Assembly: GCF_003018255.1 (NCBI RefSeq)
Contig: NZ_CP027440.1
Reading direction: 5' to 3' (one strand)
Length of the DNA: 64,000 nucleotides
Origin: Escherichia coli
GTDB lineage: Bacteria > Pseudomonadota > Gammaproteobacteria > Enterobacterales > Enterobacteriaceae
Made by a program: the position numbers and the translations under genes. This document shows positions 27,050 through 56,534 of this stretch, in pieces. Below the pieces are notes generated by a model. That model searched no databases and was not told the origin of the DNA. It was given only the letters and a program-made list of their open reading frames with translations. Position 1 is the first letter of the stretch, and each line of letters starts with the position of its first letter.

Positions 27050-27069
27050 CGTCACATCTAGAAAATAGC

Positions 27070-27094
27070 AAAGGCTGCCTGTGTGCAGCCTTTG
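27070..27094. terminator. Bidirectional hairpin terminator between yoaJ and yeaQ
   Basis: aaggctgc-ctgtgt-gcagcctt flanked by A-rich and T-rich sequence. Confidence 0.55.
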
Positions 27095-27356: not shown

Positions 27357-27503
27357 TGTTTCCTCACTTATCTGTTTTGCATTAGCGGGTTAGTCGCTGA
27401 TAAAAAGCATAGCACAACATCGTGAGGGCAAGATTTGTGACGAGCATCACGGAGGATTTTTTTGCGATGGCGCAGAAATTGCGCCATCAACGATCAGTGA
27501 TAA

Positions 27504-27686
27504 TTACCAACCACAAACATCATGTTCGTTTTCCGTGTCATAAGAACGCACGGTATTCACCAGATCTTTTATCACTTCAGCCGCCACTTCTGGCACCAGC
27601 AAAGTCATCGGCGTCTCTGTTTCATAATCGACAGAAACGCCATTGCTGTTATTGGTGACGGTCACGGTATACGTTGCTTTGCCCAT
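27504..27686 (-). CDS. yoaG: DUF1869 protein YoaG
   Basis: 60-aa ORF immediately downstream of yeaR on the same strand. Confidence 0.85.
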   Translation of the reverse strand: MGKATYTVTVTNNSNGVSVDYETETPMTLLVPEVAAEVIKDLVNTVRSYDTENEHDVCGW

Positions 27687-27689
27687 GAT

Positions 27690-28049
27690 TCATTTCCCGT
27701 TATGAATGACTTTCCGTTGTTGCGCACCTTCCATCAGGACTTCAGGAGCAACGAAGAAGTCAATGTTGAAATAAGTGTCGTCAGTCATGGCTTCAATGTT
27801 GTGCCACTTTTCTGGAGGGAACACAGCAAACTGCCCCGCTTCGATAAGGATCACTTGATCAGGCTCTGTACTGTGTTCATCAGCGTAGCCGAGATATTTG
27901 ACCGCCCCATGCATAACGGAAAGGCGTGGGTAAACCCCCGGGCGCGTTCCTTTATCAAGATGACGTTCGAATATTCCGGCAGGCGCAGTTTGTTTATTCC
28001 AGAAAGGCGTTGAGCGCGTATGAATATAATTCTGTGGGATTTGCAGCAT
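27690..28049 (-). CDS. yeaR: DUF1971 protein YeaR
   Basis: 119-aa ORF; the yeaR-yoaG pair is known to be nitrate/NO inducible. Confidence 0.88.
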   Translation of the reverse strand: MLQIPQNYIHTRSTPFWNKQTAPAGIFERHLDKGTRPGVYPRLSVMHGAVKYLGYADEHSTEPDQVILIEAGQFAVFPPEKWHNIEAMTDDTYFNIDFFVAPEVLMEGAQQRKVIHNGK

Positions 28050-28115
28050 CCTTTTCCCTCCTTCGGTGAATGCGCTGAAAACGGTTTATTTCAGCCGTTT
28101 CAGGGTACGCCTGAT

Positions 28116-28138
28116 AATTTGCATTTTAAATACCATTT
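28116..28138. promoter_or_regulatory. NsrR-like operator (11-1-11 inverted repeat) in the yeaR promoter
   Basis: AATTTGCATTT-T-AAATACCATTT resembles the NsrR consensus AANATGCATTT-N-AAATGCATNTT; located about 70 nt upstream of yeaR. Confidence 0.45.
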
Positions 28139-28221
28139 ATTGGTTACTATTTAGCACCGTATCAGAGAAGAATCAGGGAGGATTACAGGTGGGAAGCCCG
28201 CGACAACGCGGGCTGAATGCA

Positions 28222-28929
<708 letters not shown>

Positions 28930-28986
28930 TTAGAAAGGAGAAAATCAGGTTTTAACCTGATATCAACCCGATAATTGAATCATTAA

Positions 28987-29910
28987 TCAGGCATGCTCCA
29001 GTGAAAAATTCGGGTAGTGCTCGGCAAAATACTGGCGTAAAAATTCTACCGTTATCCGTACTTTCGCTGACGTCGCCAGCCTTGAAACATAAACGGCCCA
29101 GACATTCGCTGGCTGGTAATATTCCGGTAGCACTTGTACTAAATGACCACTGGCAATGTTTTCGCTAACATCCCACCAGGAGCGCAGAGCAATCCCCTGC
29201 CCATCGAGACACCACTGATGGACAATTTCTCCATGATTAGACGACAGTGGGCCGGTAACTTTAATCGCATGGTGGCCTTCTTTATTGCGTAATTGCCAGA
29301 CACCAAAAGGATGATCGCGCTCTTTAATGACCAGGCACGGCAATGCAGAAAGATCGGTTAAATGTTTCGGCGCGCCATGTTGCGCAATAAATTCCGGTGA
29401 CGCGCAGAGAATGCGATAATTGGTCGCCAGTTTGCGGGCGATTAAATTAGGGGCGATGTCATCGCCAATGCGAATATCGAGATCGACACCTTCATTGACC
29501 AAATCGACCAACCGGTCTTCCACATCAAAACGTAATTCCAGTTGCGGATACGCCTTCGCCAGCGCTGATAACGCCGGGGCCACCACCTGTCGTCCAAAAC
29601 CAAAGCTGCTGATAATACGCAGCATCCCCTGTGGCACCTGACGCACGTCAGAAAGTTCGTCCATCATCTGACCGACATCCTGCAAAATCCGCTGCGCCCA
29701 TTCATAAATCCGCTCTCCTTCTTCGGTAATGGTGACGCGGCGGGTGGTGCGGTGTAACAACACCACGTTTAGCGTTTGCTCCAGCAAGGCGATGCGCTTG
29801 CTGACGAACGCCGGAGAAACGCCCAGTTCTTCCGCCACGGCGGCAAAACCAGCCCGGCGAGCCACCAGCATAAAGACGCGCAAATCGTTCAGCAGCGGTA
29901 AATTATTCAT
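28987..29910 (-). CDS. dmlR: LysR-family regulator DmlR
   Basis: Start at MNNLPLLNDLRVF gives 307 aa; N-terminal HTH; divergent from dmlA. Confidence 0.88.
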   Translation of the reverse strand: MNNLPLLNDLRVFMLVARRAGFAAVAEELGVSPAFVSKRIALLEQTLNVVLLHRTTRRVTITEEGERIYEWAQRILQDVGQMMDELSDVRQVPQGMLRIISSFGFGRQVVAPALSALAKAYPQLELRFDVEDRLVDLVNEGVDLDIRIGDDIAPNLIARKLATNYRILCASPEFIAQHGAPKHLTDLSALPCLVIKERDHPFGVWQLRNKEGHHAIKVTGPLSSNHGEIVHQWCLDGQGIALRSWWDVSENIASGHLVQVLPEYYQPANVWAVYVSRLATSAKVRITVEFLRQYFAEHYPNFSLEHA

Positions 29911-36334: not shown

Positions 36335-36360
36335 AAAAAAAACGCCGGATTAACCGGCGT
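36335..36360 (-). terminator. Rho-independent terminator of fadD
   Basis: On the minus strand: gacgccgg-ttaat-ccggcg followed by TTTTTTTT. Confidence 0.75.
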
Positions 36361-36379
36361 CTGACGACTGACTTAACGC

Positions 36380-38065
36380 TCAGGCTTTATTGTCCACTTT
36401 GCCGCGCGCTTCGTCACGTAATTCTCGTCGCAAAATTTTTCCGACGTTAGATTTCGGTAACTCATCACGAAACTCCACCAGCTTCGGTACTTTGTAGCCC
36501 GTGAGCTGACGGCGGCAAAAAGTCACCAGTGACTCTTCGGTAAGTGATGGATCTTTTTTCACAACGAAGATTTTCACCGCTTCGCCACTGGAGCCAGAAG
36601 GTACGCCAACAGCCGCGACTTCCTGTACGCCAGGATGCTGCATGACGACATCTTCAATCTCGTTGGGATAGACGTTAAAACCGGAAACCAGAATCATGTC
36701 TTTTTTACGATCGACAATACGCAGGAATCCTTCTTCATCCATCACCGCGATGTCGCCAGTGTGTAACCAGCCATTTTTGATGATTTCATCGGTAGCATCC
36801 GGACGCTGCCAGTAACCCAGCATCACCTGCGGTCCTTTGACACAAAGCTCACCTGGTTGACCCGGTGGTACTTCGTTGTCGTCGTCATCCACCAGTTTGG
36901 CTTCCGTCGACGGCACCGGCAAACCGATGCTACCACTATGATAATCAATATCATACGGGTTAACGCTGACCAGCGGCGCACACTCGGTCAGGCCATAACC
37001 TTCCAGCAGATACTGCCCTGTCAGTTTCACCCAACGTTCTGCCACCACTTGCTGAACAGGCATCCCACCGCCTGCGGAAAGGTGCAGACTGGAGAAATCC
37101 AGCTGCTGGAACTCTTTATTGTTCAGCAACGCATTGAATAAGGTGTTAACGCCAGTGATAGCGGTAAACGGATATTTCGCTAACTCTTTTACCAACCCTG
37201 GAATATCGCGCGGGTTAGTGATAAGCAGGTTCTGCCCACCCAGTTCGATAAACAGCAGGCAGTTAATGGTCAGTGCAAAAATGTGATAAAGCGGCAGCGC
37301 CGTCACCACCAGCTCTTTGCCCGGATGCAACAGCGGACCATAGGTCGCGTTAACCTGTTCCAGGTTCGCCAGCATATTGCGGTGAGTCAGCATCGCGCCT
37401 TTCGCCACACCAGTGGTACCGCCGGTGTATTGCAGGAAAGCTAAATCTTCCGGCACCAGTTCGGGTTTGACGTACTGCATCCGGTAGCCGTTGTGCAGGG
37501 CGCTACGAAATGAAATGGCATCTGGCAGATGGTATTTCGGCACCAGACGCTTGATGTATTTAACAACAAAATTGACTACCGTGCCTTTTGCCGTAGATAG
37601 CTGATCGCCCATACGGGTCAGAATTACGTGCTGAACGGCGGTTTTATCAACCACTTTTTCCAGAGTGTGGGCAAAGTTAGACACGATAACAATCGCCGAT
37701 GCGCCGCTATCGTTAAGCTGATGCTCAAGTTCACGCGGGGTATACAACGGGTTAACGTTTACGACAATCATCCCGGCACGCAAAATGCCAAACAGCGCCA
37801 CCGGATATTGCAATAAATTAGGCATCATCAACGCAACGCGATCGCCTTTCTTCAGTCCCAACCCTTGTTGCAAATAAGCGGCAAACGCGCGACTGCGTTC
37901 TTCCAGTTTGCGGAAGGTCATCACCTCCCCCATATTCACAAACGCGGGTTGATCGGCGTAGCGCGCGACCGACTGCTCAAACATATCTACCAGAGATTGA
38001 TAACGGTCAGGGTTGATCTCCGTCGGAACGTCCGCGGGATAACGGTTAAGCCAAACCTTCTTCAA
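36380..38065 (-). CDS. fadD: Long-chain fatty acid-CoA ligase FadD
   Basis: TTG start at [14 protein letters not shown] gives 561 aa; AMP-binding motifs. Confidence 0.93.
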
Positions 38066-55377: not shown

Positions 55378-55470
55378 GACAACTCCGGCAGGATACTAAA
55401 GGCCGCAAGTGTAACGCGAATCACGCGGCGGGCAAATATCCGAACGACTGGAGCGAAGATAAAGCAAAGT

Positions 55471-55497
55471 AAAAAGCCTCGCATTCGACGAGGCTTT
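55471..55497 (-). terminator. Rho-independent terminator of cspC
   Basis: On the minus strand: agcctcg-tcgaatg-cgaggct followed by TTTTT. Confidence 0.75.
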
Positions 55498-55542
55498 ATA
55501 GCGAGATTGAAGCGTATTCACACTTCAGATCAGTGGATTCGA

Positions 55543-55752
55543 TCAGATAGCTGTTACGTTAACAGCTGCCGGACCTTTCTGACCGTCCTGAATTTCGAAC
55601 TCAACGTTCTGACCTTCAGCCAGAGTTTTGAAACCATTACCCTGGATAGCAGAGAAGTGTACGAACACGTCTTTGCTGCCATCAGCCGGAGTAATGAAGC
55701 CAAAACCTTTAGACTCGTTGAACCACTTAACCTGACCTTTAATCTTTGCCAT
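55543..55752 (-). CDS. cspC: Cold-shock-domain protein CspC
   Basis: 69-aa ORF with RNP motifs KGFGFI and VFVHF. Confidence 0.95.
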
Positions 55753-55764
55753 TTGAAAAATTCC

Positions 55765-55908
55765 TTAGATTGTTTTCTTCGCCCGCAGGCATAACATAGA
55801 TAAAACTGACACATTACTGCATGAGGCACCAATATAAGGCTCGGCAGAGAAGCGGTATTCAACGTCAACGTGTTTACTCAGGACTTCTTTACTGAAAATG
55901 CCACACAT
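55765..55908 (-). CDS. yobF: Small protein YobF (47 aa)
   Basis: Minus-strand ATG..TAA encoding [47 protein letters not shown], 12 nt upstream of cspC. Confidence 0.7.
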
Positions 55909-56534
55909 AAACAGAACTGTACCTCGTTTAACCCGAAATCTGTTATCACATACAACGTTAATTATGGCAAGCCATTTTTAAACATGTCTCGATCAGACGC
56001 ACAAATCTCGATACGTCTTCCACTTTTTTTGCACACTTATGCAACGGAATACGCGCCGATATATCATTGTGCTTAACCTTGCCAGTTCAGGCAGATACTT
56101 AAACTGACGTATTTTCTAACATAGTTCAATAAGTTCAGTTGTTCCAGGCCAGTGGGAGAAGTTATTACATAGTGCGTGCAATATCACATTTTCTGCTATG
56201 CAATGAATAAAAAGTTATATCACTTTTTCTCATAAAACAGTCAGTTAACGGCTATCGATCACCCCAAAGAGAAGTCAATCGCCAAAGGTATTGTAAATTT
56301 AAAATAAGAAAAATTGATGAATGCGCAAAAAAATCAAGAGAGAAACGTTTCGCTAATAAATAATACCACGCTTAATCACAAATCCGATGTAAACATCCTA
56401 ATAAATTAATGGGCTAAATATCTTTTTCTGATATCCCGTTACGCAAATAAATAATATGATAATTATTTGAAGTCAGACCAGAGTTTTAATTTGAAGCAGT
56501 TGCACCATGACAGTGCGTATAATCAGGATGAATT

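Follow-up and report, generated by a model that had tools for sequence, protein, structure and literature searches.

Organization of the leuE-yeaR-yoaG Locus

The DNA analyzed here, referred to as the window, is a continuous stretch of 64 kb from Escherichia coli (contig NZ_CP027440.1). Positions 27400-29000 of the window are 100% identical to E. coli chromosomes in which the RefSeq annotation of this part lists dmlR, leuE, yeaR and yoaG, and the gene order leuE-yeaR-yoaG is the same in K-12 MG1655. According to the list of open reading frames, yoaG, yeaR and leuE are all encoded on the minus strand. The leuE-yeaR intergenic region corresponds exactly to positions 28050-28221, with the ATG of yeaR at 28049-28047 (minus strand). 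The genes and the elements directly flanking them are as follows.

27504-27686, minus strand: yoaG, 60 aa, DUF1869, starting 3 bp past yeaR (Pfam PF08956, E = 4.7e-33)
27690-28049, minus strand: yeaR, 119 aa, DUF1971 (open reading frame and RefSeq annotation; Pfam PF09313, E = 4.6e-23)
28057-28062, minus strand: putative Shine-Dalgarno sequence AGGAGG, recognized by its sequence 7 nt ahead of the yeaR ATG
28195-28214, minus strand: hairpin AGCCCGCG-TTGT-CGCGGGCT, recognized by its sequence just past the leuE stop codon
28222-28860, minus strand: leuE (open reading frame and annotation), stop codon at 28224-28222

The presence of adjacent genes for a DUF1971 and a DUF1869 protein, as assigned by Pfam and RefSeq, identifies the yeaR-yoaG operon. 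An earlier note on this DNA had described the two genes in these terms, with undefined biochemical roles, and the literature still calls their function unknown. Within the Shine-Dalgarno region a GAGGG block is conserved in the alignment of orthologues (alignment A3).

The hairpin at 28195-28214 is conserved among Escherichia. It was not called by the terminator scan, because a T run is absent. Judged by its position, it probably forms the 3' end of leuE and delimits the control region of yeaR on the upstream side. At the other end of the operon, no terminator-like hairpin was found in the gap between yoaG and yeaQ (27357-27503), and a good one, with a 10-bp stem and a T-rich tail, is located downstream of yeaQ (27069-27094, minus strand). 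Therefore, yeaQ could be co-transcribed with yeaR-yoaG, as hypothesized by some authors. A search against Rfam returned no known RNA family in the yeaR promoter region. Elsewhere in the window it identified the cspA thermoregulator (55468-55928, minus strand, 139.7 bits) and the sRNA sroD (36336-36421, minus strand, 115.2 bits), both ordinary E. coli features that are unrelated to the operator discussed below.

Geometry of the yeaR Promoter

The yeaR promoter contains a 7-2-7 NarL site, TAACCAATAAATGGTA, that is centered at -43.5 according to the NarL-TAC cryo-EM work (PMC10853779). We identified the exact published 16-mer in the window, at 28146-28131, and its center was used to number the promoter, resulting in the following core elements.

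28131-28146, minus strand: NarL 7-2-7 activator site TAACCAA-TA-AATGGTA, center -43.5 (exact 16-mer of PMC10853779)
28125-28130, minus strand: predicted -35 hexamer TTTAAA, -35 to -30 (from the -43.5 numbering and the sequence)
28102-28107, minus strand: predicted -10 hexamer TACCCT, -12 to -7 (from the -43.5 numbering)
28095, minus strand: predicted transcription start +1 (G), counted from the NarL center at -43.5

The G predicted as +1 agrees with the de novo RNA of the cryo-EM work, which starts with G on a scaffold whose native sequence covers -59 to +1 (PMC10853779). The two hexamers are separated by 17 bp. In the orthologue alignment A3 the NarL site is conserved, the -35 hexamer is invariant except for its position 6, and the -10 hexamer reads TAmCCT or TACTCT. 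The weak -10 hexamer TACCCT fits an activator-dependent promoter. A simple sigma-70 scan of positions 27950-28300 found no consensus promoter, a result that is uninformative for a promoter of this type.

The NarL site itself matches the consensus TACYYMTnnAKRRGTA in only 10/14 positions, and 212 other places in the window match at least as well (187 with 10 matches, 22 with 11, 2 with 12, and 1 with 13). A consensus scan was consequently rejected as a means of locating the site.

A 23-bp Sequence in the yeaR Promoter Matches the NsrR Operator

NsrR is an NO-sensitive [Fe-S] repressor that recognizes an 11-1-11 repeat. The earlier note had drawn attention to a 23-mer of this type, AATTTGCATTTTAAATACCATTT, composed of AATTTGCATTT-T-AAATACCATTT, and both its bases and its coordinates (28116-28138, plus strand) were confirmed in the sequence. 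Read on the strand of the genes, it is AAATGGTATTT-A-AAATGCAAATT.

28116-28138, no strand assigned: predicted NsrR 11-1-11 operator, -43 to -21, center 28127 = -32 (matrix score, published site and conservation)

The 23-mer is self-complementary in only 8/11 positions, and 11-1-11 repeats with a symmetry at least as good occur at 115 places in the 64-kb window. Palindromy was for that reason rejected as evidence for an operator. The resemblance to NsrR sites was instead assessed with a palindromic matrix, constructed from the 25 sites other than that of yeaR listed in Table 4 of Mehta et al. (2015, PMC5320621). With this matrix the 23-mer scores 22.25 bits and is the top match in the 64 kb, the runner-up scoring 11.5 bits. 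Such a score has P ~1.3e-8 per position, equivalent to 0.0008 expected matches per window; under a null of 75% A+T, 0.06 such matches are expected per window and the joint score has P ~9e-7. When the 25 known sites are scored leave-one-out, the 23-mer would take 4th place among them. Its half-sites, located on opposite strands and 1 bp apart, score 11.32 bits (proximal) and 11.04 bits. The A at site position 21 in the proximal half scores -3.1 bits. Half-sites that reach 11 bits or more occur only seven times in the whole 64 kb, and two of these are the halves of the predicted operator.

The yeaR site predicted in Table 4 of the same study, AAATGGTATTTAAAATGCAAATT, is the reverse complement of the 23-mer in the window, letter for letter, so that the published operator falls on this sequence and not elsewhere in the intergenic interval (Mehta et al., 2015, PMC5320621). 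A matrix scan had been set beforehand as the test of the proposed site, and its outcome is far above threshold, with a published PatSer ln P of -17.05, where the cut-off is -14.28 (Mehta et al., 2015, PMC5320621), and 22.3 bits with our own matrix.

By the numbering from the NarL center, the 23-mer extends from -43 to -21 and thus lies inside the yeaR promoter, as had been proposed. The 2007 abstract of Lin and co-workers reportedly places the NsrR operator at a center of -32, in agreement with the center that we counted. The -35 hexamer lies wholly within the predicted operator. In addition, 8 bp (28131-28138) are common to the 23-mer and the promoter-proximal end of the NarL site, and the centers of the two sites are 11.5 bp apart. 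The earlier note was therefore correct on the operator, but left out the overlap of 8 bp with the NarL site, the coverage of the -35 hexamer and the prior publication of the site.

Conservation of the Operator Across Genera

For a comparison across genera, 26 usable orthologous loci encoding YeaR relatives were available from Escherichia, Citrobacter, Salmonella enterica subsp. arizonae and diarizonae, and Silvania. In 26/26 loci yoaG is found downstream of yeaR, and the best matrix match within 300 bp upstream keeps a distance of 73-84 bp to the ATG (in the window, 78 bp). The sites score 15-23.6 bits, with the exception of S. diarizonae (10.9 bits). Where 6-8 bases of the site differ from E. 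coli, the score is still 20.5-23.6 bits, whereas the same number of random substitutions leaves 1-6 bits; the S. arizonae (15.0 bits) and S. diarizonae sites are no better than expected from random drift.

In alignment A3 the conserved block starts with the NarL site, includes the NsrR site and reaches as far as the -10 hexamer, while the sequence upstream cannot be aligned and the 5' UTR is variable. Within the site, the correlation between variable columns and the information content of the matrix was not significant (rho = -0.27, p = 0.22). Not all of the conservation can be ascribed to NsrR, since the left half and the center of the site are also constrained by the NarL site and the -35 hexamer.

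The operator is kept in four loci that have no leuE upstream. As the sites with 6-8 substitutions belong to such loci, the operator travels with yeaR. In three loci of the C. sedlakii group (L011, L019 and L028; locus positions ~1400-1425) leuE is absent upstream and TGCCCCTTTTGGTGTA replaces TAACCAATAAATGGTA. This sequence is different yet still a NarL-like 7-2-7 site, and its proximal half, TTGGTGTATTT, is still a good NsrR half-site.

Two further observations were made among the loci collected. In Silvania hatchlandensis (L031, 1836-2214) the gap between yeaR and yoaG is ~370 bp, compared to 3 bp in E. coli, which is long enough for an additional gene within the operon. A YeaR fragment of 93% identity was also encountered in a Bacillales assembly, on a 234-bp low-coverage contig of Alkalicoccobacillus porphyridii (L032), and most likely reflects enterobacterial contamination of that assembly.

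The 23-bp sequence thus combines a high matrix score, inverted halves with a 1-bp spacer, overlap with the core promoter and conservation in orthologues, as would be expected of an enterobacterial NsrR 11-1-11 operator. Together with the literature, these features make it highly likely that 28116-28138 serves NsrR as its operator in the E. coli yeaR-yoaG promoter. Operator, regulator and overlapping NarL site have all been published already, and the result is not new and carries little weight as a discovery. It does show that a real regulatory site can be recognized from raw sequence, and it places the features of the yeaR control region in this strain at exact coordinates. It brings the role of YeaR and YoaG no closer.

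Regulation by NsrR and NarL

That expression of yeaR depends on NsrR and NarL is taken from the literature. Control of yeaR-yoaG by both regulators is attributed to Filenko 2007 and Lin 2007 by the papers that cite them, and yeaR is stated to be known as NsrR-regulated (Mehta et al., 2015, PMC5320621). It is listed among the genes that are de-repressed via NsrR and respond to NO, and yoaG is induced by NO in Salmonella. Activation of yeaR absolutely requires NarL, as reported in PMC10853779 among other work, and phospho-NarL bound at -43.5 uses the alpha CTD to recruit RNA polymerase (PMC10853779). In CFT073, nitrate induces yeaR and yoaG 160- to 168-fold, and ChIP-seq of NsrR in this strain gave no peak at yeaR, which the authors consider a probable false negative (Mehta et al., 2015, PMC5320621). 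The control by nitrosative stress suggested in the earlier note is thus supported, by the sequence match on the one hand and by literature that treats yeaR as an NsrR target on the other.

The match, geometry and conservation established in our analysis suggest how the two regulators could be combined. As long as NO is absent, the 23-bp 11-1-11 repeat from -43 to -21 would be bound by a dimer of NsrR, an iron-sulfur protein of the Rrf2 family. As the -35 hexamer and 8 bp of the NarL site fall within the operator, with the centers of the NsrR and NarL sites 11.5 bp apart, bound holo-NsrR would exclude both sigma-70 region 4 from the -35 hexamer and phospho-NarL from the proximal heptamer. Based on this arrangement, we infer that binding of NsrR and NarL is mutually exclusive. 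NO, including the NO that respiration of nitrate and nitrite forms as a by-product, would damage the cluster, upon which NsrR would leave the operator. Nitrate, signaling via NarX, would then allow phospho-NarL to bind at -43.5 and to bring RNA polymerase, via its alpha CTD, to the otherwise weak promoter. The logic of the promoter would accordingly read "NarL-P present AND NsrR absent", and expression would need NO plus nitrate or nitrite. A requirement for both NO and nitrate fits the 160-fold induction by nitrate, as nitrate also generates NO.

The motif could also be genuine but hardly occupied in vivo, with control exerted by NarL, together with Fis in rich medium, and a minor part for NsrR. 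Fis sites that overlap the NarL site of the yeaR promoter are said to have been described by Squire and co-workers in 2009. Such a minor part would agree with the absence of a ChIP-seq peak in CFT073 despite a motif above threshold, and with the absolute requirement for NarL. However, the authors of the ChIP-seq study themselves judge the negative result to be false, yeaR is listed as de-repressed via NsrR and responsive to NO, and the motif score is under strong purifying conservation across genera. We therefore regard low occupancy as very improbable.

A slightly smaller probability still is assigned to the idea that the motif is a by-product of other elements, its left half being the proximal heptamer of the NarL site and the rest A+T-rich -35 and spacer sequence, with any effect of NsrR being indirect. 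The 8 bp in common with the NarL site and the six in common with the -35 hexamer are compatible with such an origin, as are the frequency of 8/11 palindromy in the window and the lack of a yeaR peak in the CFT073 ChIP-seq. Yet the proximal half lies outside the NarL site and scores 11.3 bits on its own, and the joint score is improbable (P ~9e-7) even if 75% A+T is assumed. Moreover, the C. sedlakii group and Silvania, in which the sequence of the NarL site is different, keep 20.5-23.6 bits, and the literature treats yeaR as a direct target of NsrR. That the palindrome serves another regulator of A+T-rich dyads, such as the Rrf2 paralogue IscR or a nucleoid protein, can practically be dismissed, as the sole basis for this is the similar length of the dyads to which Rrf2-family proteins bind, whereas the matrix derived from NsrR ChIP-seq sites fits both halves and our literature search found no link between yeaR and another such regulator.

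Variation Within E. coli and the 5' End of the Transcript

The promoter was also compared between E. coli genomes. A core of 49 bp, from the NarL site to -3 (28098-28146), is identical in 4854/5417 genomes, and the other 563 of the 5417 carry 1-2 base differences. The variants described here are those of the sampled loci (L002, L003 and L033-L037). An A to G change at -36, at a base that is common to the NarL heptamer and the NsrR half-site, lowers the matrix score from 22.5 to 17.6, and a T to A change at -28, present in some but not all O157:H7, lowers it from 22.5 to 18.8. A C to T change in the -10 hexamer is also found among these variants.

This strain and K-12 MG1655 do not differ anywhere from the NarL site to +1. 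Upstream of the NarL site, eight differences are present within 82 bp; one more is located in the 5' UTR (A for G, at column 140 of alignment A1, about +6) and one in the yeaR coding sequence. In a giant-panda isolate of E. coli (AMSCJX03; L005, ~1786-2483) an IS1A element is located directly upstream of the yeaR NarL site. It replaces all of the native upstream DNA, with an insertion point that corresponds to ~28148 in the window.

Downstream of the promoter, a hairpin was noted in the leader of the yeaR transcript.

28074-28095, minus strand: tentative 5'-terminal mRNA hairpin GCUGAAA-N8-UUUCAGC, 7-bp stem at the predicted start of the yeaR mRNA

Folding of the 46-nt UTR gave -12.5 kcal/mol (z = -2.08). 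In Citrobacter and Salmonella orthologues a hairpin is found at 0-4 nt from the predicted +1, with a different sequence and register. RNAalifold returned no consensus structure for the orthologue 5' UTRs, and for this reason the hairpin remains tentative. It may act as a 5' stabilizer of the yeaR transcript.

The substitutions in the core promoter of ~10% of the E. coli genomes, such as those at -36 and -28 that reduce the score by 4-5 bits, might reflect a lineage-specific re-tuning of the nitrate/NO logic and, separately, the 5'-terminal hairpin, conserved in structure and not in sequence, might stabilize the transcript; we put these suggestions forward as speculative and on balance doubtful.

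Comparison With Other NsrR- and NarL-Controlled Promoters

In K-12 and CFT073 the operator of yeaR-yoaG, as listed in Table 4 of Mehta et al. (2015), has the same 23 bases, AAATGGTATTTAAAATGCAAATT, without differences. The NsrR operators of ytfE, hcp and hmp (11-1-11, consensus AAGATGCATTTnAAATGCATCTT) have the same architecture as the yeaR site, and the canonical operators and the yeaR site have the AA..ATTT / AAAT..TT positions in common. Within the range covered by known NsrR sites, the score of the yeaR site is in the upper part. The match, at 22 bits, is less perfect than that of ytfE (30.5 bits). In contrast to ytfE, hcp and hmp, the yeaR site has 8 bp in common with a NarL activator site, covers the -35 hexamer and is without a ChIP-seq peak in CFT073.

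With respect to activation, the ogt promoter of E. coli is similar to that of yeaR, as it is activated by NarL only, is independent of FNR and has a 7-2-7 site that abuts the -35 hexamer. The promoters differ in that ogt requires two NarL sites and yeaR one, and an overlapping NsrR operator is not described for ogt in the literature covered. The yeaR promoter is already in use as a part of biosensors for nitrate and NO.
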